64,000 bases of DNA from the NCBI GenBank assembly GCA_019873725.1, contig JAIOAS010000001.1:40257-104256 (forward strand), read 5' to 3'. Below are positions 2,984 to 55,049 of this stretch, piece by piece (position 1 is the first letter of the stretch; every line of letters starts with the position of its first letter). The DNA comes from Chloroflexota bacterium (GTDB lineage Bacteria; Chloroflexota; Anaerolineae; B4-G1; SLSP01). The notes beneath the pieces were generated by a model that was not told where the DNA came from, ran no database searches, and worked only from the letters and a program-made list of their open reading frames with translations. The position numbers were made by a program, and so were the translations under genes.

Positions 2984-3050
2984 TAAAACGTAAAACGTAA
3001 GGGAAAAAAGGCACCGCCTTTCTTACATTTTACGTCTTTACGTTTTCCTA
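2984..3050. repeat. palindromic intergenic element ('AAAACGTAAAACGTAAG ... CTTACATTTTACGTCTTTACGTTTT')
   Basis: Inverted repeat read directly. Related copies occur at 20026-20095 and 51636-51700 (a partial one at 42045-42065), always intergenic between co-directional genes. Confidence 0.75.
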
Positions 3051-3498: not shown

Positions 3499-3528
3499 AT
3501 TATACCATATCGGAGGGGGTGAAATCAA
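3499..3528 (-). promoter_or_regulatory. sigma-70-like promoter on the minus strand (TTGATT-18nt-TATAAT)
   Basis: Reverse complement of 3499-3528 reads TTGATT tcaccccctccgatatgg TATAAT. Nearly identical promoter boxes occur at 38701-38730 and 52351-52380. Confidence 0.45.
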
Positions 3529-3591
3529 GGGTAGGAAACTGGAAACCCTATGGGCAAGAAAGGTTTACAACAATGGTTGTGCTCTAGCCTC

Positions 3592-4734
3592 TTAAAGAAT
3601 ACTAACCGCCTTGGCTATTTGGCTAATTGCCTCCCGTATATCGCTTTCCGTTGTCATTCGACCTAATGAAATGCGGATAGATGCACTGGCCTGTTCGCGC
3701 GTCAAGCCTATCGCTTGCAAGACATGCGAGGGTTCCATTGCGCCAGTATGACAAGCCGCGCCGGTGCTCATCATCAAACCTGGCAAACGGAGCAGCAATG
3801 CATCAGCTTCGACACCCTCGAAAGTGATATTGGTGGTGTTTGGCAAGCGGGGCGCGTGTTGAGCATTGATTCGCAGTTTGGGGATGGCTTCCAGCAAGCC
3901 ACGTTCCAATTCGGCTTGATACTCCCTCAGACGAGCACTTTCTTGAGGTAGTTCTGCGGCGACAATTTCGCAGGCTGCACCTAAGCCCACGATAGCTGGC
4001 ACATTCGAGGTTCCGGCACGCAGACCGGACTCCTGTCCGCCGCCCTCCAACATTGGGCGGATAGGAATAGAACGTGCTCCGTCACGTATGTACAATACGC
4101 CGATTCCTTTGGGACCGTACAACTTATGTGCGCTGCATGAGAGCAAATCGACACCCCACTCCCGCACATCACAGGGGATTTTGCCTATGGCTTGTGCCGC
4201 GTCCGTGTGAACCAGTGCGCCGTGATGGTGCGCGAGTTCCGCAATTCTGGCGATAGGCTGAAGTGTGCCGATCTCGTTATTAGCAGCTTGAATCGAGACC
4301 AGGAAAGTATCTTCACCTACAGCCTGTTCTAGCTCATCGAGCGATACTAGCCCATTGTAATCTACTGGAAGGATAATTTCCTCAAAGCCTTGTTCAACGA
4401 GCCGCTTGCAGGGGGCAAGTACAGCTTTGTGTTCGATGGCACAGGTGATGATCTTGTGGCGGGCAGTTGGAGCGTACTCGGCTGTTCCTAAAATCGCAAG
4501 GTGATTGCTTTCGGTAGCGCCGGAGGTGAAAACAATCTCAGCAGGGAGAGCCCCAATCAGCGCGGCGACCTGCTCGCGAGCGTTGTCCATTGCTCGCGCC
4601 GCTTTACGTCCCAAAACGTGCAGACCGTTAGCGGGGTTGCCGTAGACTTCACTGAAGTAGGGCAGCATCGCCTGTATAACACGAGGGTCACACGGGGTGG
4701 TAGCGTTATAATCCAGATATATGGGACTGCTCAT
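3592..4734 (-). CDS. class-V aminotransferase / cysteine desulfurase (IscS/NifS/DndA/SspA-like)
   Basis: N-terminal YLDYNATTP and SCSAHKLYGPKGIGVLYIR (PLP-lysine region) are typical of NifS/IscS. It is the last gene of the co-directional defence cluster. Confidence 0.8.
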   Translation of the reverse strand: MSSPIYLDYNATTPCDPRVIQAMLPYFSEVYGNPANGLHVLGRKAARAMDNAREQVAALIGALPAEIVFTSGATESNHLAILGTAEYAPTARHKIITCAIEHKAVLAPCKRLVEQGFEEIILPVDYNGLVSLDELEQAVGEDTFLVSIQAANNEIGTLQPIARIAELAHHHGALVHTDAAQAIGKIPCDVREWGVDLLSCSAHKLYGPKGIGVLYIRDGARSIPIRPMLEGGGQESGLRAGTSNVPAIVGLGAACEIVAAELPQESARLREYQAELERGLLEAIPKLRINAQHAPRLPNTTNITFEGVEADALLLRLPGLMMSTGAACHTGAMEPSHVLQAIGLTREQASASIRISLGRMTTESDIREAISQIAKAVSIL

Positions 4735-4765
4735 AGTTTATCCGGTGGACGAAGATGACGTCGGC

Positions 4766-6193
4766 CTACGACAACTCATACTGAATATCTTCATCATATT
4801 GCCGATACTCCGCATCCAACATATACAATTGATCCCAAACCAGTTGGCGCAGTTCTACTGCCGGGCGCACACAATAGATTTCAAAATCTTCCAGACTGAC
4901 CGCTCCGTGTGGAAATTGCAACTTCATTAGTCCGCTGGCAATCAGATGTACGGCGTCTTCGTTGCGTTTATAGCGTTTTCGCCCCGTTAGAGTGACAGTG
5001 CGGCTGACGTATTGATTGGCACTGACATCTTCACGCAACGCCAGCAAAGCATCACCGAAAAAATCGGATTTTAATCCTATGCCCTGTGCGAAGGATTCAC
5101 CGCTTAGTTTGCGTACCTTCCAACCAGGCAGGATGCCACGAAGACGGTCGAGAAAAGCTGTCTCTTGCAGGAATTCGGGAAGTTCTTTGACCAACGGTGA
5201 AAGGATAGGACGTTGTTCATTATCGAGCTGGATATTTGCCAGCATAACGAGGCTGCACGCACTGGCTGTCTCATACATACCGCCGCGCGTCAAGCGTCCA
5301 TTAGCTAAAAAGCCTTTGAGTCCGCCGACGATTTCCTGCGGTTTCTCGAACTTGAGTGTTTGGACTTCATCTAACACTACCACAGCAAAACGCGCTAGCA
5401 AGCCCCATTGTCCGCTGGCATTGTTGACGAACAACACCGCCGGAGAGACATTTCCACCACTCATCAATCGTACACGTGGATTGATGTTTTCGTACAAGTA
5501 ACTCTTGCCCGTGCCTTTGGGAGCGAGTTCCAGTAGGTGCAGATTCTTTTCCACAAGCGGAAGCAAACGGCAGAGCAAATAAGTCTTCTCATTCTCGGTA
5601 AATGCCCAGGGACTGTAACCCATTGAAGTTAACAGCAGGGCACGCCACTCATCGAGTGTAAAGGCCGCTCGTTTTTCTTTGAATATCTCCAGGTTCACTG
5701 AAGCCTGCATCGGCTTGAAAGAGGTTATAGCAATACCTTCCTGAGTATCCACTAACTCCACTACACCCCACATACCTTGTTTGAGTAGATCAGGGTATGC
5801 TTCCACAATACCGTCGCCAATCTGAACCTCGGATAACCCTAGAAGCTTGAGTTGCGCAACACGCTCCTTAACGCGCCGGGTGAGAACAACTTCAACCTCC
5901 ACCGGCGTAAGCACCTTGACCACTTCACCATTGAGCAGGCGATTTTTGATGATTCTGGCCTCGTCAGGCAAGGGCAGAAAACGATCGGCCCAGGTCTGGA
6001 TTTTGGTCAATTCTTCCGGGGTAACCGCACCTTCCCCTGGAGCAAGGCTATCCAGGATCCATTCGGCTACGTAGGCCGGCACACTGCGCCGGTTCAACTG
6101 GCTAGAGGGTAGACGTCGCTTGTCTATCGCCAAGCGACCAAAGACCTGGCTCGCCTTCTGGTTCAATGCTTCGGGGGTGAGGACATCACTCAT
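4766..6193 (-). CDS. brxL: P-loop ATPase, BrxL-like (BREX Lon-like ATPase family, short form)
   Basis: Walker A LAPKGTGKSYLYENI and Walker B VVVLDEVQTL. Positioned directly downstream of PglZ, as in BREX cassettes. 4-nt overlap with the pglZ stop. At 475 aa it is shorter than canonical BrxL (~680 aa), so the Lon protease part may be absent. Confidence 0.5.
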   Translation of the reverse strand: MSDVLTPEALNQKASQVFGRLAIDKRRLPSSQLNRRSVPAYVAEWILDSLAPGEGAVTPEELTKIQTWADRFLPLPDEARIIKNRLLNGEVVKVLTPVEVEVVLTRRVKERVAQLKLLGLSEVQIGDGIVEAYPDLLKQGMWGVVELVDTQEGIAITSFKPMQASVNLEIFKEKRAAFTLDEWRALLLTSMGYSPWAFTENEKTYLLCRLLPLVEKNLHLLELAPKGTGKSYLYENINPRVRLMSGGNVSPAVLFVNNASGQWGLLARFAVVVLDEVQTLKFEKPQEIVGGLKGFLANGRLTRGGMYETASACSLVMLANIQLDNEQRPILSPLVKELPEFLQETAFLDRLRGILPGWKVRKLSGESFAQGIGLKSDFFGDALLALREDVSANQYVSRTVTLTGRKRYKRNEDAVHLIASGLMKLQFPHGAVSLEDFEIYCVRPAVELRQLVWDQLYMLDAEYRQYDEDIQYELS

Positions 6194-8352
6194 AAGTCTA
6201 GCTCCTTGAGCAGGTCATCAGGCTGCTCGTAAAGTGTCTCAACCTGAAGGTGAGGAACGACTTCGCTCGAGAAAGTAGTGCCGTTGGGTTGGCGGAACAA
6301 CAAGGTGGCCTTTAGATTCTTTTTATCAGACTCGGTCGGCCAGGGTGTTAGGGAGAGGTTAAAGCGAGTCTCATCAAGCGGTGGAATCTGCCAGTTGCCG
6401 CCGACTTGCACACCATGAGAGAAAGAAACGCCTAAACACTCCAGTATTATCTGGCTGGTGTTGATAATCACAACAGTGATTGTTCCAACGTGCTTGGCCT
6501 CGCCCTTGCCACTGATCACAATATTCAGCGCGGGTGTTTTAGCATCGCGCACGAAGACAAACCACGGAACAATAACCTCTTCAGGAAATAATCCGCCGTG
6601 CGGGTAGGGATCATAGCCCGCTTTGTCGTTCTCAAAACTCTCTTCCCCCCAGGCAACCAGCATATCATGCGCCATTTCAAAGCGTTCACCGTGAACGGCT
6701 ATTGTACCAGCGGTTTCGTCTATCGAAAAACCATGCTCGTCAAACTCCAGGTCGAGTTTGCCCCAGGCGACTCGTCCATGGGCTTGCATTCCTTTAGGAG
6801 TTGGTAAGCAGCGTGGTGATTTGGGATTGAGCAGCCGTCCGTGGTCGCTGGTGATGATGATGTGTAGAATGACTGAGTTGGGAAGACTCTGGACAACTTC
6901 AGATATTGCCTGAAGGATGCTCTCCAACTTCGCATGCACTTCCCGTTCCCGCTTGTCTTCACTCTCAAAGTGATAAGCTTTGTCAGGCTGTTCAACACGC
7001 CAGAAAACAACTTCACCAGACCGGATGTCTTTCAGGCCGCGTTTAGGGGAGGTATGATCAGGCAGAATGTATCCCAAAGGAGGATACTGCGGTGATAGCC
7101 GCGGCGGTACGCCTTTGAGCAGGGCATCTTTGGCAAACTCGGTGACGGTGGGCATGGGCGCAAAGCAGTACGATTTTTGCTCAAGCTGCAAACGTTCTAT
7201 TTTGGCCCCCATGGTGTGGATGAAGTCTTCGGCGTCCCAGGCAGGCAGCCCATCCAGGACAACACACAAGGTGAGGGCTTGCGGCGCAGCATCATGCAGA
7301 CGAGCGGAAATTTGGAACGAGAGGTTGCCCGGTTCAAGCAACCAGCGTGGGTAACAGGAGAGATACCACCGGACGAAATCTTGAGCACGTTGGACAATAC
7401 ATGTTCGCGCCTGCTCATCGCCAAAACGCGCTTGCCAGCGACGATAGGGGAGATATTCGGCCTCGAACCAGGCTAACACTGCTGTGGGGTCCTGCGGTAG
7501 AGCAGAGGGTTCTGGCGGCGGTAAGCGTTCTTCGAGTGTCGCGAGCGTTTGCGTGTTGAGATACGGCTGAAGATCGCGTAGAATACCACGGGTAAGAAGA
7601 GGAGTGTTTTGCTCGTAGAACTGAACAGCCAGTTGCGCCAATTCCTGACGTAAGGCAACTGACATCGGGAAAGCAAACATTTGAGCAAAATATACGCCCT
7701 TGCTCTCAATCAACCTTTTCATCCAGGCAGATTTGATTTCTGTCAGCAATGGTTCAGGAACCGGTAGCGGAAATTCATCCAGACTGTCAAGTTTTTCATC
7801 CGCTGCGCCTAGCCATCGCCAGAGTATGGATTTAGCGCCTTCAGAGGTAAACACACGATATAGTCCAGCTTCAGAAGCATTTACCGACCGTCGCTCCAGC
7901 TCAGTGGCGAGATAGTGCAGAATGACAGTTTCGGCATCATCAGGCCGATGCGTGAACAGCCATAGCAGCCAACGCGCAGCATGTTCGCGCGAGGGCGCAC
8001 CTTGCCAAAGCGCATAATCGTCAGGATAACAACAGTTCAGGACAAACGTAGCAGTCATTTGTTCGGGTGAGGCTATGGCCATGCCCATTTTTAGCGCCAA
8101 CTTGTCCGCCTGCTGCTGCAATAAGGCCGGAAAGGTGCGCTGTAAAACGACACGGAGTGATTCTCGATAACAATAAGGTCGTCCGCGCAGGCTATAAAAA
8201 GCCTCTGCCCAGGCACTCAGGCGCTCGCCTCGAATCAGGAGTGGTGTATCATCGGTAGCATAACGTAAGAAATCTACTTCACTGGCGATGACCTGATAGC
8301 CAGGCGGTGCGGGTAGGTCGCCCTGACGGTCGAGTATAACTTCGGTATGCAT
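6190..8352 (-). CDS. pglZ: PglZ-domain protein (alkaline-phosphatase superfamily, BREX)
   Basis: VVLDGLPAWDAEDF and IIITSDHGRLL (the TxDHG motif characteristic of PglZ). Size ~720 aa. The start overlaps the brxC stop (ATGA). Confidence 0.7.
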   Translation of the reverse strand: MHTEVILDRQGDLPAPPGYQVIASEVDFLRYATDDTPLLIRGERLSAWAEAFYSLRGRPYCYRESLRVVLQRTFPALLQQQADKLALKMGMAIASPEQMTATFVLNCCYPDDYALWQGAPSREHAARWLLWLFTHRPDDAETVILHYLATELERRSVNASEAGLYRVFTSEGAKSILWRWLGAADEKLDSLDEFPLPVPEPLLTEIKSAWMKRLIESKGVYFAQMFAFPMSVALRQELAQLAVQFYEQNTPLLTRGILRDLQPYLNTQTLATLEERLPPPEPSALPQDPTAVLAWFEAEYLPYRRWQARFGDEQARTCIVQRAQDFVRWYLSCYPRWLLEPGNLSFQISARLHDAAPQALTLCVVLDGLPAWDAEDFIHTMGAKIERLQLEQKSYCFAPMPTVTEFAKDALLKGVPPRLSPQYPPLGYILPDHTSPKRGLKDIRSGEVVFWRVEQPDKAYHFESEDKREREVHAKLESILQAISEVVQSLPNSVILHIIITSDHGRLLNPKSPRCLPTPKGMQAHGRVAWGKLDLEFDEHGFSIDETAGTIAVHGERFEMAHDMLVAWGEESFENDKAGYDPYPHGGLFPEEVIVPWFVFVRDAKTPALNIVISGKGEAKHVGTITVVIINTSQIILECLGVSFSHGVQVGGNWQIPPLDETRFNLSLTPWPTESDKKNLKATLLFRQPNGTTFSSEVVPHLQVETLYEQPDDLLKELDL

Positions 8353-11300
8353 TATTCCCCCATCAGTTCGTGCAGACGTCTCAAGCACTGGCGGCGGGCT
8401 TCGATATCCTTGATTCGAATAAATCGGTCTTCGATTTGCGCAACAAGGTCTTCTTCCAGTCGCTTTTGCAAGGTTTGCTTGAGTTGCGCCAGCCGAGTAA
8501 GACTCTCGGAATCCAGAAAGGCAGGAGGTTTCTCCAGTTGCTGAAGCAAAGTGGCAGGATTTTCACCCCCCTTGTGGCGCTGGGCAAAAGTTTGCAACCA
8601 AGTCTTGGCCTCTTGGGTCTTCTGTTGATGTAGCTTCTCAATGTTTGCCTTTCTGGTCTCCAGCAAACGCCGCTGCTCAGTACTAAGCAAAGCTCCGTAA
8701 TGCGTTTCGGCTGTGGTGAGTTGTGCTTTGATAACACTCAGGTCATCTGGCGTGTTGCAGGGAAGCCTGTCAAGCTTTTGAAGTTCCTCGAAAAAGGCTT
8801 CGAGTTGGGTGATTCTTTGCTCAGTTTCACACAAGAGTTGATAGAGAGGTGTTCCTTGCACTGAGTCCAAATTGCGCAGTACCAGGTCGCGCTGGTCTCG
8901 CAATTTGTTTATACTGTCGGCATGCTCTATAGATTCAGGCAAAACAGCCGCAATTTGCTCGTATTGGTGTATACGGTTTTCGATTTGTGCGGATTTTTCA
9001 TCGCGTAATTTGGATGTTTTCGGGGAAAGATTAGTTAGTTGCAATAGTCTTTCACGGTAAGCATATAAGGTTGACAGTCCGTGAGAAGGTGCCATACGCT
9101 GCAACTCAGCAACAATCGCTTTTTCGCTTTCCTGTTGTTTTAGTTCCTCATAAACTTGTTTCAGTTTGTCCAGAGCTTCTTCTACGCGCTTTGCTGACAT
9201 GGGATACTCAGTCAAAGCTTTGCGGGCACGTTGGAGTTCCCGCTCGTGCGGTTTATAGTCGCTCAAATCCTTTAGACTTTCATATCGAGTGCAAAATGAT
9301 TCTAACGCGGTCTGCATGGCATCTTCCCATCGGGTTTGCAAAATGCATAGACCCGGTTCGGAAGGCATGACTTGCCGGGGAACAGGAAACTCTTTCAACG
9401 ATTCACGCAACTTGAGCAAGTCGTCAAAACTTGCGGATTGCAAAGCTCGCAACCATGCGCCAGCCCTTTGGTCATATTCTTGCGCCTGTTGCAACGCTTC
9501 CTCAAGGCGCGGACGCAATTGTTCGATCTCTTCTCGCTTGGCTTCGGGTAAACGTGGAGTGGCGAGCGCCTCTTCAAGTTTGACCAGAGCCTCATTCGCC
9601 TCAGCAATCGAGAAGGATTTGCCCTGTCGTATTTGCTCCAATACAGTGTTGGCTTGGTTAAATGCTTCGTCGGGTTTGGAGCGGCCGATAGCAAGCGGCG
9701 ATAGAATACAGATACGGTTAAGGAAGTCCTGCGGGTTTCTCGATTCGTCAAAGAGGCTCTTGAGCTGGCTTAGTGAAACGATCTTACCGCTCAACGACAA
9801 GCGAATTTCGTGCTGGTGGAAACCAATCCATGCGGATAGTAACAGAGTAAGCGTATTGTAATCGTGCCCATAGGGCGGATTGAGCAAGGTAAGCAAGACC
9901 GTTTGAACATGAACATCGTTACAGCCTGCAGGGAAGGTTTCTTCAAGTAAGTTCCAGGCTTCTTGTAGGGCCCGCGAGGTCGGGAGCTGAATAGTATAGT
10001 CTTGGGTTGTCAGCAAGCCCCATTTCTGCATCAAATAGAAGTTAGCCACCTGATATTGCATGTCTTTGTTTGCCAGATTGTGAATACTACTCCCTGCTGT
10101 ATCGCTGAACAACCAACGCGCGATATTTTGTACAGCCGTGCGCAACTGATTGACACCCTTGCCGCCTACAGGTCTGTCAGAAAAATCCACCCGATACACA
10201 TACGCCTGTTTATAGCACTCAGCAATAACCGCCTTAAGTGATAGATTCCTGAGCGTCTGGACCGAGGCGCGATACGCAACGGGTAAAACATAATCTTTCA
10301 AATTTCGCTGGATTTCTGCAAAGTTTCCTGTATCGCCGATCCACTCGTCTACAGCTCGCTTGAAGTTCGCCTCCGCCAATGCGCTTTCTTGTTGATACAT
10401 GACCGTCCCGATTTTTTCCCGTTCCGAACGTCCTAGAGTTTCAAGCGCTTTCATCCGTTGAGCCGTAGCCACCAGGCCAGGCGTAGGATGTTTGGGTAAA
10501 ACGATAATTACTGGCAAAGGATGAGCCAAAGTCCCTAATGCCGAGTCCAACACAGACGGAGCAGTTTGCTGTAATTGTATTTTCTCTTCCTCACTCTGCG
10601 CGATGAGCCAGATGACTACCCCGCGAGAACCCTCTTCAATGCCACTCACTCCTGCACGATAAGGTTGGAGTAGTTTTCTTAGTTCGTCTGTCGTGAATAG
10701 GTCAGCAGTGAATGCCGCTTGGCGTGGCGCCCAATCCCCAATGTTTCCATAATTCAAAGAGATCTCTAGGGCGGGTACTGCCGCGCTTATTTTGCTCATT
10801 AGCGCATGATCGACTGGCGTTTCATCTACTGCCTTTTGGATGATTTTTTCCGTTTCGGGCGAGCGAACTCCAGGAGGAAGGAGAGATGAAATCTTGTTAT
10901 AGGGATCGTACTGAATCACTCTGGCTTCGCTCAGTTCGCGTAAAAGAACCTTGATTCTTTCAACACTTAACCCACACAAATGGCTAAGTAAATCAAGTTG
11001 CGCATCTTTCCGCAGTTTCAGTCTGTCTAGTTCTGCCACAGCTTGCTGCAATAAGAGGGCTTTCAGAACGGCGCGATGTTCACCAGTGAGAGGGATAGGG
11101 GAACTCTCAAGTGCAGTGCGATAGGCTGTATACCAACTCTTGGAAATTTGCTCTCCGAAGAAATCTACCAGTGTAATTGCAAAGACGAAATTAGGACTAC
11201 CATCCAGCAATTGGGCTGGCTGTTGACGCTGGTCTTGCCACATCCGGCGCACAAATTCCAGGGCGGTACGCGGGCTTTCGCCCGCACCTGACTCAAAGTT

Positions 11301-12557
11301 GTGAAACGACAAAATGGCCGTTGTCAATGGATGCAGAGGAAAGCAACCTTTGACCACTTTTTGCGCTGCAGCCTCGACATTCCATTTTAATGCTTCGTCG
11401 TATCTTTTGGAAAAGTAGCTATATAGAGCTTCTCGGCCTCGCGCCAACGCTGGTTTTACAGCACGCTGTTCAAGCCAAGCCGCCCAGGCAACATCGTCTT
11501 GTTTCAGGTAAGCGTCAAGGACACTTTCCATAAGCGAAAACAGCCGAGCGCGTTTGTCCTTGGGCAAACGTTCTAGTTCTTTTTTAACGCTGTCGCGGCG
11601 TTGTCCGAGGGCATAAGTCTCGGCTACGGTATCGACATCATGTTGAGAAAAAGCTAGAAATGCACTTTTCCCAGGGCGCTTGCTGATACCGTTGAGCAAT
11701 TCTTGTAATTTACCTGCCACACGCGAGGCGGCGTACTTTTGCAGGAACAAACTAAATTCATCGAACAGAATCAGTAGACCACCGAAATGATAAGGCACAC
11801 ATACTTTGTCTACCGCCCACAACACCAATTCTTCCAGGTTGACCTCACCACCGAAATCAGGGTAGACGCCCGTGACCTGTTTGAATACCTCGCGGACTAA
11901 CGCATAGGCGCCCTGCTTGCGCAAGTCGCTCGTCAAATGGGCGAGATCAGTGTTTTGGACAGCCAGAAAACTTTCAGCCTTTTGGCGCGCTTCGCCGCTG
12001 AGGTTCTTCAGCCATGCGGCTGCATGAGCATACCAGAAGGGCATTTCCAAACTACGTGTGGCGTTGTGCTCTTGCAGCGCATGTTCTAGGGCACGCACAA
12101 AACCTTCCTGAAGATCGTCGCAGCGGTCACCTTGCAAGCGCACCACTAGAAATTCGCCCTTACTCTTCTTGAAATCGCGGTAGCCGGCCAACTGCGACTG
12201 GTTATTGAGCGCCTGTCCTAGCCGATCCAGCACAATCTTCACCTCTGGTGAATCTGCTGGGCGAGCGAAGAAGTTTGCCAACGCCAATGCTAGGTGGCTT
12301 TTGCCGCGCCCATAATTGGCGGTCAACACAATACGATAATCACCGCGTTCGACGGTGAAAGCTGTCTTTAGCGTATCCAATACGTCTTTGGCGGCGTAGT
12401 CGCGCTGGGCAGCGCCAATGGTCACCGGCGCATGAACGGTGAAAATGTACTTTTGGAGTAATTCGCGATTGAGCTTGGGGTCTTCATAGTCGCTTAGTTG
12501 CACGTCTGAGCGAAATTCACCCTGCATGTCCATGCTAACCAATTCTTCTATACGCAT
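8352..12557 (-). CDS. brxC: BrxC/PglY-like large P-loop ATPase (DUF499-type), 1401 aa
   Basis: N-terminal Walker A VLTANYGRGKSHLALALANFF (GxGKSH, as in BrxC). Very large protein with a coiled-coil-rich C-terminal half. Position upstream of pglZ. Confidence 0.65.
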   Translation of the reverse strand: MRIEELVSMDMQGEFRSDVQLSDYEDPKLNRELLQKYIFTVHAPVTIGAAQRDYAAKDVLDTLKTAFTVERGDYRIVLTANYGRGKSHLALALANFFARPADSPEVKIVLDRLGQALNNQSQLAGYRDFKKSKGEFLVVRLQGDRCDDLQEGFVRALEHALQEHNATRSLEMPFWYAHAAAWLKNLSGEARQKAESFLAVQNTDLAHLTSDLRKQGAYALVREVFKQVTGVYPDFGGEVNLEELVLWAVDKVCVPYHFGGLLILFDEFSLFLQKYAASRVAGKLQELLNGISKRPGKSAFLAFSQHDVDTVAETYALGQRRDSVKKELERLPKDKRARLFSLMESVLDAYLKQDDVAWAAWLEQRAVKPALARGREALYSYFSKRYDEALKWNVEAAAQKVVKGCFPLHPLTTAILSFHNFESGAGESPRTALEFVRRMWQDQRQQPAQLLDGSPNFVFAITLVDFFGEQISKSWYTAYRTALESSPIPLTGEHRAVLKALLLQQAVAELDRLKLRKDAQLDLLSHLCGLSVERIKVLLRELSEARVIQYDPYNKISSLLPPGVRSPETEKIIQKAVDETPVDHALMSKISAAVPALEISLNYGNIGDWAPRQAAFTADLFTTDELRKLLQPYRAGVSGIEEGSRGVVIWLIAQSEEEKIQLQQTAPSVLDSALGTLAHPLPVIIVLPKHPTPGLVATAQRMKALETLGRSEREKIGTVMYQQESALAEANFKRAVDEWIGDTGNFAEIQRNLKDYVLPVAYRASVQTLRNLSLKAVIAECYKQAYVYRVDFSDRPVGGKGVNQLRTAVQNIARWLFSDTAGSSIHNLANKDMQYQVANFYLMQKWGLLTTQDYTIQLPTSRALQEAWNLLEETFPAGCNDVHVQTVLLTLLNPPYGHDYNTLTLLLSAWIGFHQHEIRLSLSGKIVSLSQLKSLFDESRNPQDFLNRICILSPLAIGRSKPDEAFNQANTVLEQIRQGKSFSIAEANEALVKLEEALATPRLPEAKREEIEQLRPRLEEALQQAQEYDQRAGAWLRALQSASFDDLLKLRESLKEFPVPRQVMPSEPGLCILQTRWEDAMQTALESFCTRYESLKDLSDYKPHERELQRARKALTEYPMSAKRVEEALDKLKQVYEELKQQESEKAIVAELQRMAPSHGLSTLYAYRERLLQLTNLSPKTSKLRDEKSAQIENRIHQYEQIAAVLPESIEHADSINKLRDQRDLVLRNLDSVQGTPLYQLLCETEQRITQLEAFFEELQKLDRLPCNTPDDLSVIKAQLTTAETHYGALLSTEQRRLLETRKANIEKLHQQKTQEAKTWLQTFAQRHKGGENPATLLQQLEKPPAFLDSESLTRLAQLKQTLQKRLEEDLVAQIEDRFIRIKDIEARRQCLRRLHELMGE

Positions 12558-12577
12558 TATTCCCTCCCGAAGAATAC

Positions 12578-13042
12578 TTATTTCAGAACACCTTCGGCTA
12601 TCTGGGCCGTATAGCGGCGTTGCATATCAAAGGTAAATAGTTCGGATGTCTCTGCCGGCACGGCCAGTATCAATTTGATGCGCGGGTAAGGCAAGCCTTC
12701 CAACGCCTCGCGCCAGAAACATTCACGTTCGTTCATTTCCAATCCCAGCAAGAGCAAGTCCAAAGTATGCACCAATAAGCAATCTTGCGTTTGAGTTGAA
12801 TGGGCGAGTGTGCGCAGCAAATCCATAAGATGCCGATGTCCATCTGGGCGCGTAAGGCCGGAAAAATGCGTTCCTTCCGGCAAACTTTGCAGATAAGCTT
12901 GCCGTGCATCCAATGCTTGTACATTTAGACGCACAGCAATATCACCTTCCTGGCCGAGGTATGCGCGCGGCATCAACCATACCCCTACACCGGTCCGCGC
13001 GCCGGGTTGACGCAGTGCATCCCGCAGAGCTTCGATGTTCAT
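12578..13042 (-). CDS. hypothetical protein (154 aa), BREX-cluster accessory
   Basis: ORF tightly packed between the DUF4007-like gene and brxC. No motif. Confidence 0.45.
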   Translation of the reverse strand: MNIEALRDALRQPGARTGVGVWLMPRAYLGQEGDIAVRLNVQALDARQAYLQSLPEGTHFSGLTRPDGHRHLMDLLRTLAHSTQTQDCLLVHTLDLLLLGLEMNERECFWREALEGLPYPRIKLILAVPAETSELFTFDMQRRYTAQIAEGVLK

Positions 13043-13045
13043 CGC

Positions 13046-13858
13046 TTACCCCACATACATCTTTTGCAGAGCGTATTCCAGACTGGGCTGTAACAAGACC
13101 ACCTGATAGGGGCGGGATATCCGGTAAAGATCGAGCATACCCTCTTGTTTGAGTTGCAGGAGGAGGCGCGTTAGGCCTTCTTCGCCCAGCAAGAATATCG
13201 AGGCGAAATCCCCCTGGCTCAAGTCATCCAGATTGATCGTGAGCCGCTCATCATAGTGGGCGCGCCAATATTCGGACAGCGCGTAGCCCAAAGCCCAAAG
13301 CGGTGGTGCATCTGTTGAGAGCACGCGGTAAGTTTTGGTGTTTATCTCTTCCACCAAGCCCAAACGTCCTAATCCATCGGTTTTGAGATATGTGCCGAGA
13401 AAAACTGTGATGGTACTACGCACCGAATCCGGCGCGGGGTTTTTGCCTGCTTCTTGCTGAAGAAAGGCCGTCAGATCGGCAATCAGATCGGCGGCGGTGA
13501 AGATGTTGCCCGGCACAAAGCGCGTGCGCACCAAATAGTTCCAAAAGGCCGTAGGGCCATGTGGCGCGGCCAGGTGATAATGCAGCAGCCATTGTGTACT
13601 GACTTTTTCCAGGGTGGGATCATGTTGGGCGACAAAGCGTCCGAAGACGGTCAGTGCATTGCTCTTGTCCAACAACCCGGCACGTAAGGCGTAACGCGGC
13701 ATAGCTTCCTGATAGACTGTTCCTAAGTCTGTACTTTTTCCCAAATCTTCTCGTTTAAAGCCAGGTTTATATTTGGCGAGAGAAATGACTTTAGCAATGG
13801 ATGAACGGGACAGAGAAAACGTACGATGAAAGGTCAGGCTCATATATTCTCTCCTCAT
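13046..13858 (-). CDS. DUF4007-like protein, paralog of the 18356..19273 product
   Basis: Aligns with the 305-aa protein: AMPRYALRAGLLD vs AAAIRYWGLALGLLN, and STQWLLHYHLAAPHGPTAFWNYLVRTRF vs GSLWLLHWLLASNQERGLVWYLIFSRYF. Start adjusted to avoid overlap with the PAPS-reductase gene. Confidence 0.5.
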   Translation of the reverse strand: MRREYMSLTFHRTFSLSRSSIAKVISLAKYKPGFKREDLGKSTDLGTVYQEAMPRYALRAGLLDKSNALTVFGRFVAQHDPTLEKVSTQWLLHYHLAAPHGPTAFWNYLVRTRFVPGNIFTAADLIADLTAFLQQEAGKNPAPDSVRSTITVFLGTYLKTDGLGRLGLVEEINTKTYRVLSTDAPPLWALGYALSEYWRAHYDERLTINLDDLSQGDFASIFLLGEEGLTRLLLQLKQEGMLDLYRISRPYQVVLLQPSLEYALQKMYVG

Positions 13859-14682
13859 TATAGATGACAAATAAGACAACTTTCATCTCCTGATTCGTTC
13901 GCTAAGAAAACGTCTGCTAAGGTCAAATTTACTCTTGATTGCTGTTGACGTTCCAGACGGCGGCTGTACTCTTCTCGAATCACTCTTTGACGTTCGGGAG
14001 AACGTAATTCTCTTAAGCTTTCTCGAGAAGACCACGTATATCGTTCGCCAGTTTCAAGGTTTTCTCTCTCGAAACTTTCGGCTCTTTCATATAAATCTTT
14101 ATGGTTCTCTAGTAGCCCCAACCATTCAATTTTTTGTTGAAAGAAGCAAAAATAACAACCCGAACGCGAACGCCATTCGTAGTATTTGGGCAAACCAAGC
14201 CCACTCTCGTCTAAAATTCGAACGACGTCTTCCCGCTTTATATCATCCTCTATAAAAGGGTAACGCGCTATGATATTTGGTTTGGTAGAAACATAACCTT
14301 TTCGATGTTGTTCATCGGCTCGTATACCAATGTAGTTATAACAAATATCATTACTGATTTCTTCTTCAAAAGGCTTAATCTTTAGGTATTCTGTACACCA
14401 ACGGACTTGTGCTGAAGGTAGAAATCCGCCTCTAGCTTTGAGCATATCTTCAAACGATTGTCTTGCTCTAATCTTTTTAATCTCTCTTCCTAAAAATACT
14501 TCCAATTTGTCCAAATATTCGTACGTTTCCGGCAGTTCTTCGCCTGTATCGCAAAAGACATATTCCAGGTTGGGAATACGGCCGCGCAGATAAATAGCCA
14601 GGGCAGTGCTGTCTTTGCCGCCGGAAAGCGAAACGATGTGCCGTTCAGGACGAATCAAATTTACCTCCTTCAGTCCACACAT
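13858..14682 (-). CDS. brxP: PAPS-reductase-family PP-loop ATP pyrophosphatase (BrxP / DndC / SspD-like)
   Basis: PP-loop IVSLSGGKDSTALAIYL. Cys clusters CYFCFF and CLICHL. GC ~40% versus ~65% in flanking DNA. Confidence 0.8.
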   Translation of the reverse strand: MCGLKEVNLIRPERHIVSLSGGKDSTALAIYLRGRIPNLEYVFCDTGEELPETYEYLDKLEVFLGREIKKIRARQSFEDMLKARGGFLPSAQVRWCTEYLKIKPFEEEISNDICYNYIGIRADEQHRKGYVSTKPNIIARYPFIEDDIKREDVVRILDESGLGLPKYYEWRSRSGCYFCFFQQKIEWLGLLENHKDLYERAESFERENLETGERYTWSSRESLRELRSPERQRVIREEYSRRLERQQQSRVNLTLADVFLANESGDESCLICHL

Positions 14683-14936
14683 ACTTCAATCATTTTGCCG
14701 AAAACCTGCGCCAGCCGACAGGCCACATACAAGGAGACGCGCCGTTTGCCAGACTCAATCTGGGAAAGATAGGAACGGTCAATACCTGCTTGTCGCGCGA
14801 CTTCATCTTGGGTCATCTGGACTTTCTCTCGCTCGGTTTTTAACCGTTGCCCAAAATGTTGGTAGAACTCGTCTTGTTTACTACTGTCAACAAACGAATC
14901 CCCCCGCTTTTCTATGCGGGGGGATTCGTTCATCAT
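14670..14936 (-). CDS. XRE-family helix-turn-helix transcriptional regulator
   Basis: MTQDEVARQAGIDRSYLSQIESGKRRVSLYVACRLAQVF is a classic Cro/CI-type HTH. Low GC. Confidence 0.6.
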   Translation of the reverse strand: MMNESPRIEKRGDSFVDSSKQDEFYQHFGQRLKTEREKVQMTQDEVARQAGIDRSYLSQIESGKRRVSLYVACRLAQVFGKMIEVCVD

Positions 14937-15018
14937 TTCACAATGGGTTAATTCTATGAGAGGTGATACCATTGAGGCCTCCTATGTTGATTGGTGTTTG
15001 GGGTATCTAACGCATTGA

Positions 15019-18000
15019 TCATTGTTGCCCGGCCTTTTTCTGTTGTTTTAACAAGAGCTGCAAAGCCAAGTTGATTACTGCCGGATCATAATTATAGCGA
15101 CTGAGAAAATGGGTCAAGTCTTGTGTGAGCATCTCGGCGCGTTCCCGTGTTTCATCAGATGCTGTTGTCATTTGCGTGAGCGTATCATTTGTGTGTTCTT
15201 GCCACAAAACACCGATATATTGCGCTTGCGCAGAGAAACGTTCAACATCGGCGTCCGTCCACATACGCGCCGGACGGTTGGCAATCACAGCTAAAACACT
15301 TTCCAATGCAGCGCGTGAATCCGCAGCTTCGGCGGCGCGCTTGAGTAGGGGCAGCAAAATGGGGTGTGAAACTCTCGAAACGAGTTGAGTGGCAAGTTGA
15401 CGGAACGATTCCCAACTCGCTTCGCCATCGGGCAAACCGCAAGCCGTCAGCCAGGCATCACGCGCCCAAATTAACAAGTTGGGTGTAGCATTGACCAACG
15501 CATCCAGCGCCGTATTCAGCCGCTCGAAAAAGACCTCGAAGCGATCCTGATCAAATTCCCTTTCCTCGAACGCAGGCAATCCCAACGCTTCCGGCACTTC
15601 CACAAACAGGAACCTTTCGGGAGAGCGTGATGTTTCCACCGCATGGCGCAACTTGAGAGCGATTTCAGGCAGACGGTGGGTGCGCTGGGCATATTCAGGC
15701 AAGGCTTTCATACGGCTAATCACCGTCCGTGCAACCGGCATCACGTAGGGTGACACACCCAGACCACGCGCCATACGTGCCAATACGGCAGCCCGCAATC
15801 CCGTCACGCGGCAGCCTGCCAGTGAGAACATCTCCGGGCGCCGCAGCAGTACTTCCCAATCCGCTACACTCGGCTCGACAAGCAAAGTCCCTTCTTTGTA
15901 GAGCGTCATTTCGTTCTCATAAACCTTGTAGAAAACGGCTAGCATAACCGGTATAACGCCCTGTGTCATGCCAAACGGTGGGGCACTCAGGCGGCCATAG
16001 AGATCGGTCACGGGCTGGGGGTCTGGCAAGCCAGTAAAGACGAAATCATAAATGGCTTGCCATGCGGCAGTCAGATGCAGGCTATTTTCGGCGGGCGGGG
16101 CAATGCGCCAGTTTTCTCCATCCAGGCGGTGCATATCGCCTTTGTGCAGCAAGGCTTCGTACATACTTCGCTCTGGCGGGAACCCCTGGATACCCAAAAT
16201 GGGTTGTTCAGCGCGGGTAAGAATGCCCTCGATGAGCGTGCGGCGCGCTGCTGCCCCCTGCGAGGTCAGCTCGCGGCGGTTGAGCAATTCGTTCCACACC
16301 CGAGGCGAGTGGGGGTAGAGCGCATCGCAAATTTCCGAAAGCAATCCCGAAAGACCGCGTTGCACGTGCTCGGAGACTTTGGCTCCCTGATAGAACCACT
16401 GACAGCCTGCCAGAGCAGAAATCCGATGCGGATTGATAGCTTCATCCAGTTCCAAACGAATCATGCGCTCAATAGAAGCCAACCGCGCCCGCCATTCACG
16501 TCGGGCCACCGGATCGTCACGCAGTTCAGGCGTGTTTTCGCGCACCCAATGTAAACCGCGCAACTCCTGGGCCAGTTCCTTCAGGCGGATTGCACGACCC
16601 GCTACACCGACGACAATCTCTGAGCGGCTGCTGAATGCCTCTGATTGTGCCCATCGCGTGAACTGGTCTATTTCGGTCAATGTACCAGGCAGACATAAAA
16701 GCACCAATCCGCTGGCCTCAGGAGAAGAAATGAGCGAAACCTTGTCCAGATTAAAGGAATCGACATAACGCACATCGAAAAAGCGCTGGGTGCCGGTCTG
16801 ATAGCTATGCCGGCGGGGAAAAAGAGGTCTTGGCGGCAGATACCCTTGCAGCACCTCGGCAATGCTGAAGGTCATCCCCAGCATACCGCGGGCAGTATGT
16901 AAACGTTCCTCAATGTCCACATCACTGCCTTGCCAGACAGCGTAAGTGTCGTTGAAGCGACGATAAACAATAAGCGAGCGACGGCGTAACGCATCTAGTC
17001 CAGCACGTAGGGCAGATTCGTTCCAATCGGGAGCGTAAAACGCGCTCAGGATCATCGCCTCAGTCGCCTGTAGAGGGCCAATTTCCCCTAACCAGTTGAG
17101 CAAGCTAATCGTTTTCAGCAGATCGGTTTCGATTGGGCTAAGATTGGGTGTGTTCTCCAACCGTTCCAATGCTTCGGTCAACGGACGAGCGTGGCCTGAA
17201 GCGTAAATCCGTCCCTGATAATTAGCTGCCAGATAGTCGAACAAATCGGGGAGGCGTAGGAACTCTCCACTTGTGTGGCCGGCGAGAAATTCCTGAAAGC
17301 CAAACGGTTCCTGCGAAGCCAAATAGGCAAAAATCGAACGCTCGTTTTGTGCTAGGCGACGAAAGAAATACGGTAAGGCAACAAACGCACTTGGGTGAAG
17401 GGGATATGCCCGGCAAGCGAGAGTGGTGAATTCGGAGAGGGGTATCGTTGCCGGACGCCAGCCAGCTTCTTCCACGGCTTGTATTGTTTCAGCAAAGGCC
17501 AGTGTCAATGCTGGTGGATCGGGCGTATCGTTCAAGGCACGCGCCAGTAAACGCATTTGCTGAACTGGCGGTTCCAGGAAGGGAATATCCTCAAAACGGC
17601 CTTGCACCTTAGCCCATTCGCGCTGTGTGGTGCTGTCCAGCAAGGCGGCATATTGCTCAAAGGCCTGGTGCAAAATGCCCGCGAAGACCAGCGGCCGCTC
17701 ACCGCTGCGGGCAGCAAACTCGGCTAACTCCTGCAAAAGATAGACATCGCTCTCGTATGGATGGGCGGCGGCGTGCTCCAGAGCTTTGCCCAACTCATCA
17801 AACAGGATTAATGCCCCGCGCGCGCCGGAAGGCGTTTGACTCACTGTTTCCAAGAAGGCTTCCACCCAGCGAAGAAAGACACGGCTATCGGCATGGCGGG
17901 CTTCCTCAAGGCTTTCCCGCAATGCAGGCGCAAACACTCCGGTTTTCAACGTCTGCTCAAATCCACGCGCCAGGCACTCCTGAAGCGGCGCCCGTGCCCC

Positions 18001-18363
18001 CGTCACCGCTACCGTGACGAAACCATCGTTTCCTCCTATCTGCTCTTGCAATCGCTCGGTCAGCAAGGGATCGGACTGCTCCAACATCTTCCAGGCAATC
18101 GTATGTCCCGTTTGTCGCGCATCCAGCAAATGAGCGAGGAACAACCCAAAGAACGATTTGCCCGAACCATACGGTCCGGTCAATATCCAGGCTCTGGCAT
18201 TGCCCGCCAGTCCATCCACAACGCGCCCCAACGCGGCCAACGCCTGTGCTGTCAGAGTGTATCCAACCAGCAGATCGCCGTTAGGTAGATCGCTTTCCAG
18301 CCGCACGGCGCGTAAATTGTTTTGACGAAGGTGAATCACCTCACGTAGCAGCGTCTCAGTCAT
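15019..18363 (-). CDS. second BrxC-like / DUF499-type large P-loop ATPase (SspC-like?), ~1115 aa
   Basis: Walker A ILTGPYGSGKSFFGLFLAHLL. N-terminal region is alignable with the 1401-aa BrxC-like protein. The start is set at MTETLLREV. Confidence 0.55.
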   Translation of the reverse strand: MTETLLREVIHLRQNNLRAVRLESDLPNGDLLVGYTLTAQALAALGRVVDGLAGNARAWILTGPYGSGKSFFGLFLAHLLDARQTGHTIAWKMLEQSDPLLTERLQEQIGGNDGFVTVAVTGARAPLQECLARGFEQTLKTGVFAPALRESLEEARHADSRVFLRWVEAFLETVSQTPSGARGALILFDELGKALEHAAAHPYESDVYLLQELAEFAARSGERPLVFAGILHQAFEQYAALLDSTTQREWAKVQGRFEDIPFLEPPVQQMRLLARALNDTPDPPALTLAFAETIQAVEEAGWRPATIPLSEFTTLACRAYPLHPSAFVALPYFFRRLAQNERSIFAYLASQEPFGFQEFLAGHTSGEFLRLPDLFDYLAANYQGRIYASGHARPLTEALERLENTPNLSPIETDLLKTISLLNWLGEIGPLQATEAMILSAFYAPDWNESALRAGLDALRRRSLIVYRRFNDTYAVWQGSDVDIEERLHTARGMLGMTFSIAEVLQGYLPPRPLFPRRHSYQTGTQRFFDVRYVDSFNLDKVSLISSPEASGLVLLCLPGTLTEIDQFTRWAQSEAFSSRSEIVVGVAGRAIRLKELAQELRGLHWVRENTPELRDDPVARREWRARLASIERMIRLELDEAINPHRISALAGCQWFYQGAKVSEHVQRGLSGLLSEICDALYPHSPRVWNELLNRRELTSQGAAARRTLIEGILTRAEQPILGIQGFPPERSMYEALLHKGDMHRLDGENWRIAPPAENSLHLTAAWQAIYDFVFTGLPDPQPVTDLYGRLSAPPFGMTQGVIPVMLAVFYKVYENEMTLYKEGTLLVEPSVADWEVLLRRPEMFSLAGCRVTGLRAAVLARMARGLGVSPYVMPVARTVISRMKALPEYAQRTHRLPEIALKLRHAVETSRSPERFLFVEVPEALGLPAFEEREFDQDRFEVFFERLNTALDALVNATPNLLIWARDAWLTACGLPDGEASWESFRQLATQLVSRVSHPILLPLLKRAAEAADSRAALESVLAVIANRPARMWTDADVERFSAQAQYIGVLWQEHTNDTLTQMTTASDETRERAEMLTQDLTHFLSRYNYDPAVINLALQLLLKQQKKAGQQ

Positions 18364-19273
18364 AATACCCCCGCAACAACTCATATCCCTGTTCAGGCAA
18401 GATGGTATGCAGGTATATCTGGCGCAATCCGGCGGTCTCTTGCAAGCGCAGCGCACCGTTCGTGAGAGATTCTAATTGCTCTAAATAGGTCATGACACTG
18501 TTTTCATCCAGTTTGAAAATCTGCCCTGGACTGCCTGGTTGATAAACACATTCGTCTACAGTTGCCGTGCGTCGCTGAGCAGCTATTGTGTTCAGGAACC
18601 CAAACAAGGCATAGCCGAACACAGCCGCAGGCAGTGAAGATTTAGCGCCAATGTCAAAACGATAAACCCCATCGCCGGGCGAAAGGCGTAGTAAGTTCAG
18701 ATCCACCAGTGGGCAATCTAGACTTTCCTCGAAGTTTCCCCCCTTACGACCTTGTGACGGGACGTAAGTACGTAGAAAGACATCCACTTCGCGCGTAACC
18801 ATGCCTTCGGTTGTCTCAATTCCCATTTGCGTCAATTGTTTCCTGATGAATTCTGTGATTTGCTGCTTGCGAAACTCAACATCGAAATAGCGTGAAAAGA
18901 TAAGATACCATACTAATCCTCGCTCTTGATTACTGGCTAACAGCCAGTGCAATAACCAAAGCGAGCCAATATCCTCCAGATAGGGGTCCCAGCCGCCATC
19001 GGCCAGCAGGCTGCGCCCCAGTTTAGAAGGTTCGATAGCGCGGGTCTGACTGCCCGCGCCGGGAATATAGTTCAGCAATCCTAACGCCAATCCCCAGTAC
19101 CGAATAGCAGCAGCCATATTCTTCCCGACACCCAATTCCACAAAGGCATCTTCGCGGCTGAAAACTAATGGATCACGCAGAGCGGCATCCAACCCTTTCT
19201 TTAGCCAGCCCTGCCGAAAAACGAATTTTTCATGTCCGCCAAAAGGTGGGCGGGATGAGTGTGTTACGGACAT
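18356..19273 (-). CDS. DUF4007-like protein (possible SspB-like), first gene of the defence operon
   Basis: 305 aa with FVFRQGWLKKGLDAAL near the N-terminus. Paralogous to 13046..13858. Assignment to the DUF4007/SspB family is from memory of that family and needs an HMM check. Confidence 0.45.
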   Translation of the reverse strand: MSVTHSSRPPFGGHEKFVFRQGWLKKGLDAALRDPLVFSREDAFVELGVGKNMAAAIRYWGLALGLLNYIPGAGSQTRAIEPSKLGRSLLADGGWDPYLEDIGSLWLLHWLLASNQERGLVWYLIFSRYFDVEFRKQQITEFIRKQLTQMGIETTEGMVTREVDVFLRTYVPSQGRKGGNFEESLDCPLVDLNLLRLSPGDGVYRFDIGAKSSLPAAVFGYALFGFLNTIAAQRRTATVDECVYQPGSPGQIFKLDENSVMTYLEQLESLTNGALRLQETAGLRQIYLHTILPEQGYELLRGYYD

Positions 19274-19511
19274 TCCTGTTAACTCCCTCGTTAAGTACTT
19301 ATTCTAGAGAACGCCCCCGACGTCTGACGCGCGGGGGCGGGTATGGTATGCTTATGCCCACTACGGCGCGTCATCGCCGATAGTGCCTTTGGGTTGTGGC
19401 TCAAAGGAAGCCCGAGCTGTTCAGAGCTGCGGGTCTATTTTTTTTTGTTTTGGAGGTAAGTATAGGCAGGATGGAGAAAGGGTCAAGTATCGAAACTTGC
19501 GATTCATCAAA

Positions 19512-19545
19512 CTGGCATCCTGAATCCACGATTCAGGATGCCAGT
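19512..19545 (-). terminator. perfect 15-bp stem-loop downstream of the OB-fold gene (possible terminator)
   Basis: ctggcatcctgaatc-cac-gattcaggatgccag. On the minus strand it is followed by UUUGAUG (a weak U-tract). Confidence 0.4.
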
Positions 19546-19568
19546 AGGCCTTGCATAGCATAACAGAG

Positions 19569-19958
19569 TTACTGCCTCTCCTCCTCCCTCCTCCCGACAA
19601 ACCGCCACTGCGTCGCCACGACCTCGACCCTGGCCTGCTGCACAAAGCCCTGCGCGTTCGCCGCCAGTTCATTGCGCTCCGCATCGTCCAAGCCCTCAGC
19701 GCGGCGCACCAGGTGCACCAGGTTCTCCCGCGTGTCGCGCTGCTGCAAGAACCCGGCGACTTCCACCTGGTCGCCCTGCTGCCACGATGGCGCACGCCCC
19801 ACGGCCTGCGGGAAACAGACATCGATGGCGTCGAAGTTCTTGCCATCGGGATTCGGTAACATCCCCGGCTGGCGTGGGATCAACACCCGATACACCGTCG
19901 TCTGATCCGGCGACACCCGCCGCCGAACCACCGTACCTGATAAAGATATGTTGTTCAT
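19569..19958 (-). CDS. OB-fold ssDNA-binding-like protein (PriB/SSB-like)
   Basis: MNNISLSGTVVRRRVSPDQTTVYRVLIPRQ...GDQVEVAGFLQQRD resembles the PriB/SSB OB-fold pattern (N..LSGTV....SP.G.....L). GAGGAG lies 8 nt upstream of the internal ATG. The N-terminal 20 aa of the track ORF are probably not translated. Confidence 0.4.
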   Translation of the reverse strand: MNNISLSGTVVRRRVSPDQTTVYRVLIPRQPGMLPNPDGKNFDAIDVCFPQAVGRAPSWQQGDQVEVAGFLQQRDTRENLVHLVRRAEGLDDAERNELAANAQGFVQQARVEVVATQWRFVGRREEERQ

Positions 19959-20025
19959 ATAGTTATTCTCCTCGTTGATGACAATGATGGTTGTGTATAT
20001 GTTCACTGTCTGGCTCATAATAACG

Positions 20026-20095
20026 TAAAGCGTAAAACGTAAAACGTAAGCGCGCTTCGATGCCCTCTTTACGTTTTACGTCTTTACGCCTTACC
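20026..20095. repeat. palindromic intergenic element (ACGTAAAACG family)
   Basis: acgtaaagcgtaaaacgtaaaacgtaagcgcgcttcgatgccctctttacgttttacgtctttacgcc. Related to 2984-3050 and 51636-51700. Confidence 0.75.
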
Positions 20096-54369: not shown

Positions 54370-54432
54370 TTGTTACTCTCCATAACGATGTGGCTGCGAT
54401 TTCCAAATCGCGTGGTCTGGAATCTCCCACCG

Positions 54433-54978: not shown

Positions 54979-55049
54979 ATGTTCATCTCCTGGACTGAAA
55001 TTGATCTAAACCGTATAACAAAACAGTTTCCAAAGATTGTAGGGGTGAA

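Follow-up and report, generated by a model that had tools for sequence, protein, structure and literature searches.

Does a sharp drop in GC content inside a bacterial defence island record a recent import, or an older property of the gene that occupies it? The question is raised by a 64,000-nucleotide (nt) stretch of a Chloroflexota bacterium (contig JAIOAS010000001.1, positions 40,257 to 104,256; hereafter the window), in which a 10-gene island resembling Ssp and BREX type 4 systems (~3–20 kb) contains a GC trough at 13858–14972, over the gene of a PAPS (phosphoadenosine phosphosulfate)-reductase-like enzyme and that of a small helix-turn-helix (HTH) protein. Segments of atypical composition serve as markers of horizontal transfer under the concept of amelioration, and the initial annotation read this trough accordingly, as a recent acquisition from a low-GC donor. 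On balance, we favour a different reading, namely that the trough is an inherited compositional signature of the core of one gene, sspD, which is common to a clade of Ssp/BREX-type-4-like clusters and is not the scar of a recent import. To this signature we infer a contribution of recurrent exchange between related clusters.

The gene at the centre of the trough, sspD (13858–14682, minus strand), encodes a PAPS-reductase-like PP-loop enzyme (Pfam PAPS_reduct, PF01507, 1.6e-13; PADLOC SspD, 4.9e-108). Gene identification here and below was based on Pfam, NCBIfam and PADLOC models. The gene had been named BrxP, which is a fusion of SspD and SspB (PAPS reductase plus DUF4007), just as BrxC is a homologue of SspC (PMC12914056; PMC12839542). 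The name does not fit, as the PADLOC BrxP model matches weakly and over positions 135–317 alone (4e-11), whereas the SspD model (PDLC02782) pairs residues 14–273 of the product with model positions 1–276 of 277. The product has 274 amino acids (aa) and ends at a TAA stop at 13858–13860, the DUF4007 domain lies in a separate open reading frame (ORF), and the SLSGGKDS and Cys motifs are invariant among 41 homologues. By these sequence criteria 13858–14682 is a stand-alone SspD and not a fused BrxP. The longest sspD ORF begins at ATG 14682 and overlaps the HTH gene; the real start is likely TTG 14658, directly past the HTH stop, as judged from an AGGAGG 5 nt upstream and from the homologues.

The trough itself is real. 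The segment 13858–14972 has 43.05% GC, a value that just 0.38% of the 1115-nt windows in the 64 kb reach or fall below, all of them overlapping that same place, so that it represents the lowest stretch of such length. The 1115-nt minimum lies at 13591–14705 (42.3%) and the 200-nt minimum at 14300–14499 (35.5%), and 200-nt windows remain below 0.48 GC over two intervals, ~13600–14599 and 14800–15199, with a local rise to 47.5–53% at 14.5–14.9 kb inside the trough. From both window sizes, the trough proper is placed at 13591–15200 (~42–45% GC), a span of ~13.6–15.2 kb that takes in sspD, the first ~100 nt of the DUF4007 gene that follows it, a spacer and the 3' end of sspC.

Around the trough, three layers of composition can be distinguished, with the host at 63%, the island (~3.0–20.0 kb, ~17 kb) at 52.5% and the trough at 42–43% GC, which agrees with the earlier description of the island as compositionally mosaic. 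Also in line with that description, the region of 20–52 kb, tad-like pilus genes included, measures 63.0% GC, and brxL, pglZ and the gene of a 1401-aa protein are intermediate (50–52%). A CpaF homologue encoded in the window shares just 38–49% identity with those of named relatives (Chloroflexota, Anaerolineae, Caldilineaceae, Armatimonadota). The contrast with the flanks had been overstated: these were put at ~65% GC, and 15–18 kb at 65–68%, whereas the immediate neighbours of the trough measure 50–56%, the 15–18 kb region 50–61% in 200-nt windows, and the whole of sspC 55.4%. At the level of genes, sspD is the compositionally most deviant in the window, with 41.3% GC and a third-codon-position GC (GC3) of ~0.34 (0.341–0.345) compared with 0.532 for the remaining island genes (z = -6.25). 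In no other island gene do the codons fit the host so poorly: the value is 0.43 for sspD, 0.50–0.56 for the others and 0.67 +/- 0.05 among genes of the host. The HTH gene is island-like (47.9% GC, GC3 0.505), so the trough, which had been assigned to both genes, is not uniform over them.

To place this trough among related clusters, species-representative genomes were scanned with the SspD protein, which gave eight Anaerolineae-type loci (L001–L008) with the same sspB-to-sspA order. Exact-protein look-ups added L014 and L015, and later L096–L099, for a total of 14 syntenic relatives, all on Anaerolineae-type contigs; a metagenome scan raised the number of sspD loci to 77. The clade of the window was defined as loci with sspD at >=70% identity (n = 12).

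The trough is found at the same place in 14/14 syntenic relatives (the eight genome loci and six further contigs). Their sspD genes all have 40.2–45.6% GC, in the company of neighbouring genes that track their hosts and range from 40 to 65%. In GC profiles aligned on sspD, the mean is 0.38–0.44 with a standard deviation (sd) of 0.02–0.03 at +150 to +900 nt, compared with an sd of 0.05–0.08 outside, and the low-GC stretch stops ~100 nt into the next gene in every aligned locus. In the wider set, sspD lies below its flanks in 71 of the 77 loci. Within the clade of the window, its GC has an sd of 1.5 points and a slope on flank GC of 0.27; among more distant relatives the slope rises to 0.81, and their SspD genes reach 56–70% GC with GC3 up to 0.96. 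The deficit is also larger in hybrid loci, which have BREX-like partners, than in plain sspBCD loci (-6.1 vs -3.4 points, p = 0.011).

Because the trough occurs in every related cluster examined, whatever the GC content of the relative, it is no evidence that this genome acquired the segment recently. The reading at issue, that an sspD–HTH block from a low-GC donor was put into an older cluster here, could draw on the extreme composition of sspD within the window, on the swaps of sspD cores that do occur in the family and on the sspC|sspD junction as a hot spot for inserts. The history of the genes speaks otherwise. The window groups with L014 and L015 for sspB, sspC and sspD alike, which leaves no separate history for its sspD, and the identity of sspD to these two relatives (83–88%; L014 87%, L015 85%) is in step with that of sspB and sspC (81–86%). 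Its synonymous divergence (dS) from L014 and L015 is 1.2–1.5, neither lower nor discontinuous (window vs L014: sspD 1.19, sspB 0.95, sspC 1.03). Third-position identity to L014 is 0.55–0.72 across sspD, at least at flank level and among the most similar segments, and both measures run continuously over the sspD junctions. Among the loci, identity at 4-fold sites is 0.364 for sspD and 0.31–0.38 for its neighbours, with ~0.26 expected by chance. The sspD of the window has thus diverged together with its flanks, and a recent import is not visible here.

Nor do donor and cargo fit. The nearest sspD homologues are on Anaerolineae-type contigs of 45–60% GC and not in low-GC organisms. The HTH gene, which would have been part of the acquired unit, has ordinary island GC and is an optional insert of some loci only, with a distribution different from that of sspD. 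Taken together, we regard a recent acquisition in this genome as very improbable. The idea of a swapped segment survives as a process in the family, as seen in L096 and L097 below, but not as a dated event in this genome and not with the HTH gene included. Like transfer markers of the amelioration type, sspD shows a sharp local drop in GC and GC3 and a poor codon fit to the host; unlike them, its deviation is inherited across many hosts and persists at saturated synonymous divergence, and it dates no transfer event. A sharp GC trough in a defence island can be an inherited trait of one gene family instead of a transfer date, which calls for caution in composition-based calls of horizontal transfer.

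If the low GC is inherited, where in the gene does it reside? Family-wide, the sspD deficit is located at codon positions 1 and 2 (-5.5 and -3.7 points), is negative in ~90% of loci and reflects amino-acid composition, while GC3 roughly tracks the flanks. The combined fraction of Phe, Tyr, Met, Ile, Asn and Lys is 0.24–0.28 in the SspD of all loci, compared with 0.16 to 0.24 in neighbour proteins, where it varies with host GC. The clade of the window has an additional GC3 deficit of -15 points in 12/12 loci (slope 0.40), which is gene-wide and present at 2-fold and 4-fold sites alike. To separate the two parts, the GC content of each sspD was predicted from its protein, using the codon usage of the surrounding island. 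In the window, the highly conserved protein accounts for 41% of the deficit and A/T-ending codons for 59%, and the protein share is 41–54% in most relatives. BrxL, an equally conserved protein, has the GC content expected from its flanks. In the low-GC relatives L003 and L004, the codon usage of sspD is the same as that of the flanks. A literature search on sspD and GC content found nothing relevant.

Exchange of the sspD core between clusters is most directly seen in two contigs from different samples, SRR29849498 and ERZ773283. These contigs, L096 and L097, are 100% identical from sspB through sspC and the HTH gene up to ~150 nt into sspD, then fall to 42–85% identity, and return to 98–100% from ~150 nt into the DUF4007 gene. 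The swapped tract (L096 4700–5550 vs L097 6250–7520) has breakpoints that match the trough edges, which implies that the segment was exchanged as a cassette within the family. In L097 the tract holds an extra gene of 159 aa, the protein of which has no match in Pfam; sspD genes of the L030/L023/L101 group, which carry this gene too, represent the donor type. In two other close pairs, the proportion of synonymous differences (pS) is raised in the sspD core: 0.42 vs 0.15 and 0.17 in the flanks for L005/L006, where the excess is uneven within sspD, and 0.29 vs 0.13 and 0.11 for L096/L098, where it clusters in one patch across the 3' half of sspD and the DUF4007 5' end. Further, L016 and L096/L098 join a distant sspB–sspC unit to a window-like unit of sspD, the DUF4007 gene and the gene of a 154-aa protein, so that modules reassort at the sspC|sspD junction. 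A pS (NG86) of sspD above both flanks in 75 of 91 pairs was not relied on, given that saturation affects most of these pairs, that 2-fold codons are common in sspD and that no excess appears at 4-fold sites.

These observations suggest how an inherited signature could be maintained. The segment from about codon 50 of sspD to about codon 50 of the next gene would undergo homologous recombination among related clusters, and as the core would be exchanged faster than it drifts towards local GC, its A/T-ending codon usage would persist and its composition would reflect a shared, lower-GC gene pool. This effect would come on top of the fixed effect of protein composition. A more far-reaching version, to which we give limited credence, holds that the sspD core circulates on its own as a cassette whose composition is set at ~42% GC regardless of host, with exchange among Anaerolineae-type Ssp/BREX-4 clusters at two fixed breakpoints, one in the conserved PP-loop region of sspD and the other at the 5' end of the next gene. 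Were this so, the enzyme that writes phosphorothioate (PT) modifications, and possibly its specificity or partner contacts, would be reshuffled independently of the sspBC and BREX-like effector units, and in some lineages an HTH cassette with an in-ORF terminator and operator would gate expression at the junction.

Several points weigh against exchange with a shared pool as the origin of the signature. That recurrent exchange causes the low GC3 is deduced from only three close pairs and one clean recombinant, and L097 is a low-coverage metagenome contig and a possible assembly chimera, although a chimera is unlikely in that it requires two switches back to the same background. The mean synonymous similarity of sspD among loci is no higher than that of its flanks, which gives no direct sign of a recently shared pool, and the main sspD groupings match those of sspB and sspC. 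Observed sspD GC averages 0.428 compared with ~0.475 expected from the protein and local codon usage, and the shared pool would have to be dominated by low-GC hosts. Finally, a gene-specific preference for A/U-ending codons would yield the same pattern.

That last point amounts to an explanation of its own, in which selection on the gene holds sspD A/U-rich at synonymous sites and cassette exchange, as observed in relatives, would be incidental. Such selection might serve to throttle or slow the translation of the PT-writing enzyme relative to its partners, or to keep this part of the polycistronic mRNA unstructured or unstable. The GC3 deficit is what such selection would leave, as it extends over the whole gene in all 12 clade members and affects 2-fold and 4-fold sites alike; synonymous divergence equals that of the flanks, so that low GC3 looks like an equilibrium, and the codon fit of sspD to the host, the lowest in the island, points the same way. 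It is also consistent with a report that a brxP deletion was unobtainable in Bacteroides salyersiae, which the authors considered possibly deleterious (PMC12914056). However, sspD codons equal flank codons in L003 and L004 and are thus not 'rare' there, and the GC-rich distant SspD genes indicate that the enzyme works without A/T-rich coding. A sliding scan for synonymous constraint found no hot spot in sspD; the fraction of same codons is slightly and uniformly raised, as codon bias would lead one to expect. Weak start codons were considered as a sign of low sspD expression and ruled out, as most relatives use ATG, and Shine-Dalgarno sites are not consistently weak. We consider selection on the gene a possible but rather doubtful account of the trough.

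A further alternative is that the A/T-rich stretch is a functional DNA or RNA element, for instance a cluster of internal promoters that drive the effector genes, a site where a silencing protein nucleates, or an RNA embedded in the sequence. TATAAT-like boxes do occur just upstream of sspD, in the sspC|sspD gap of HTH-less relatives, and one promoter-like match lies at the sspD/DUF4007 junction (13886–13857), but a promoter and terminator consensus scan showed no enrichment, with 2 promoter-like sites vs 3.1 expected. The Rfam scan of the whole window returned no match, and a search of the antisense and alternative frames of sspD turned up no conserved ORF (lengths varied from 43 to 129 codons). 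As the low GC extends evenly along ~800 coding nt and synonymous change is nowhere suppressed within sspD, such an element is highly unlikely as the cause. We retain the inherited signature of the sspD core as the preferred reading.

What, then, is the HTH gene that shares the segment with sspD? It encodes a 100-aa regulator of the XRE/Cro-C1 type (14670–14972, minus strand; Pfam HTH_3, PF01381, 1.2e-13, residues 44–92), which also matches PADLOC HTH_VI (4e-12) and the restriction–modification (R-M) model 'Control_protein' (3e-11). The gene occurs only in the window, L015, L007 and L096–L101, where its place is invariably the sspC|sspD junction. Elsewhere this junction varies: L008 has a PIN/AbrB-like pair there, and in eight further loci it is empty. 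The L008 pair (9338–10001), which replaces the HTH gene there, is toxin–antitoxin-like and was assigned by eye from the translations as a PIN-domain protein with an AbrB-like partner. We infer that the HTH gene is an independent and optional controller that was inserted at this junction.

Two conserved features lie in the HTH gene. The first, inside the 5' part of the ORF, is a GC-rich hairpin (14889–14934, minus strand) that has a C6/G6 core, precedes a U-run and has a fold energy of -34.6 kcal/mol (z = -9.1). Hairpin and U-run are present in 7/7 distinct HTH loci, ~45 nt past the ATG; the 12-bp consensus stem has compensatory changes at 5/12 pairs, 97.6% of cells are paired, and the covariation score was reached by 0/500 shuffles. 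The hairpin is thus a candidate intrinsic terminator or attenuator. The second, just past the hairpin, is a palindrome of invariant sequence, TTGTTGAC-N4-GTAAACAA (14874–14893), which is unique in the window (0 expected by chance), occurs once per HTH-bearing locus and is found in 0/92 loci without the HTH gene, and is a candidate operator for the HTH protein. Hairpin and palindrome together are located at 4500–4550 in L015 and 4680–4729 in L007, and are also present in L096, L098, L100 and L101. There is no in-frame start between the palindrome and residue 54 of the HTH ORF, so both features are inside the coding region.

The arrangement recalls the C proteins of R-M systems and XRE regulators, in which a small HTH_3 protein is encoded directly upstream of, and co-directional with, its putative target genes; like C proteins, the HTH protein of the window matches PADLOC 'Control_protein' models and has a conserved palindrome adjacent. 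It differs in that the palindrome and the terminator-like hairpin are inside the HTH ORF, ~45–100 nt past the ATG, and not upstream of it. Probably, the HTH gene with its putative terminator and operator gates transcription from sspBC into sspD and the effector genes. The conserved hairpin and palindrome, which may control modification and effector genes, and the mapped recombination cassette around sspD are the two leads that the locus offers.

To which system does the island belong? Every island gene is on the minus strand. Upstream of the trough lie sspB (18356–19273; Pfam DUF4007, 6.9e-78; PADLOC SspB, 1.7e-85) and sspC, which encodes a BrxC-like P-loop ATPase (15019–18456; PADLOC SspC, 1.4e-299, and BrxC, 1.4e-250) and has its last ~180 nt in the trough. 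Downstream of sspD is a second DUF4007/SspB-like gene (13046–13879, likely start ATG 13843; Pfam DUF4007, 7.6e-19; PADLOC SspB, 1.9e-16), the first ~100 nt of which fall within the trough by the composition profile. It also matches the C-terminal part of the PADLOC BrxP model, and by sequence the gene and sspD together correspond to a split BrxP. The next gene encodes a conserved protein of 154 aa (12578–13042), which has no match in Pfam, NCBIfam or PADLOC and is syntenic in all relatives.

For the 1401-aa protein (8352–12557), sequence searches of Pfam, NCBIfam, PADLOC and PDB were negative. Its similarity to SspC is weak and colinear and takes in the Walker A and B regions (E = 0.004, single comparison), and it is probably a very divergent BrxC/SspC-like P-loop ATPase. 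It is 49–69% identical across all relatives, and its gene and pglZ are the fastest-evolving in the cluster. The island is completed by pglZ (brxZ, 6190–8388; PADLOC PglZ, 2.4e-90), brxL for a Lon-like AAA+ protein (4766–6193; Pfam BrxL_ATPase, 3.3e-94; PADLOC BrxL, 4.8e-211) and an sspA/dndA cysteine desulfurase gene (3592–4734; Pfam Aminotran_5, 3.4e-88; PADLOC DndA and SspA, ~1e-153). In L015, pglZ is present as two ORFs of 576 aa and 120 aa (11083–13246), which may reflect a frameshift or a pseudogene. In L014, the closest relative, a CBASS-type operon with a SAVED/PNP effector, a DncV-like cyclase and an E2-like protein (2378–5524) lies directly upstream of the Ssp/BREX cluster and marks a defence-island context.

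The prototype of SspABCD phosphorothioation is from Vibrio cyclitrophicus FF75 (PMC12914056). As in such systems, SspD of the window is a stand-alone PAPS-reductase/PP-loop protein of ~270 aa with a full-length PADLOC match, its gene adjoins sspB and sspC, and an sspA/dndA desulfurase is encoded in the cluster, so that sspB, sspC and sspA/dndA accompany sspD in the same direction. Unlike SspABCD systems, the cluster is without an SspE or SspFGH partner and goes on with the second DUF4007 gene, the genes of the 154-aa and 1401-aa (P-loop-like) proteins, PglZ and BrxL; its sspD is also 10 GC points below its operon partners, a clade-wide trait. As with BrxP of BREX type 4 (PMC12914056; PMC12839542), the PAPS-reductase part is followed directly by DUF4007, but the two domains are in separate ORFs and not in a single ~780-aa fusion. 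PglZ and BrxL are shared with the brxPCZL set of BREX type 4, and by sequence match the whole gene set is present (PglZ, BrxL, a BrxC-type ATPase and a predicted PT-writing enzyme). Unlike BREX type 4, the window also has the full sspBCD set, and its island therefore encodes two DUF4007 proteins and two BrxC/SspC-like ATPases.

Approximately 40 genomes with sspBCD beside brxCZL were described by Yuan et al. (PMC12914056; PMC12839542). The combination of full sspBCD with BREX type 4 genes is thus already known, and the island belongs to that type, which places it among the recently described sspBCD plus BREX-type-4 clusters. In functional terms, SspD would act as a PP-loop ATP-pyrophosphatase that, with SspA as sulfur donor and with SspB and SspC, puts phosphorothioate into DNA, and the DUF4007, 154-aa, 1401-aa, PglZ and BrxL genes would form the BREX-like effector side.

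The island is bordered by related elements. A palindromic hairpin with CGTAAAA heptamers marks its left edge (2974–3049; fold energy -30.7 kcal/mol, z = -4.9) and a second its right edge (20025–20094; -30.6 kcal/mol, z = -6.1), and the two share an exact repeat of 21 nt. A 16-mer of the element has 9 matches vs 0 expected. These hairpins may be terminators, members of a repeat family of the host or marks of an integration hot spot; a transfer RNA (tRNA) scan for an integration site found none. A third copy is located at 51637–51681 and a partial one near 42051, and a second region of lowered GC (52000–64000, 46–60%) starts right after the third copy. An independent assembly, L013 (Logan contig, SRR16606022), corresponds to ~3347–19628 of the window, exactly the island, and is broken at both edges, which suggests that the flanks of the island are variable in the SRR16606022 sample.

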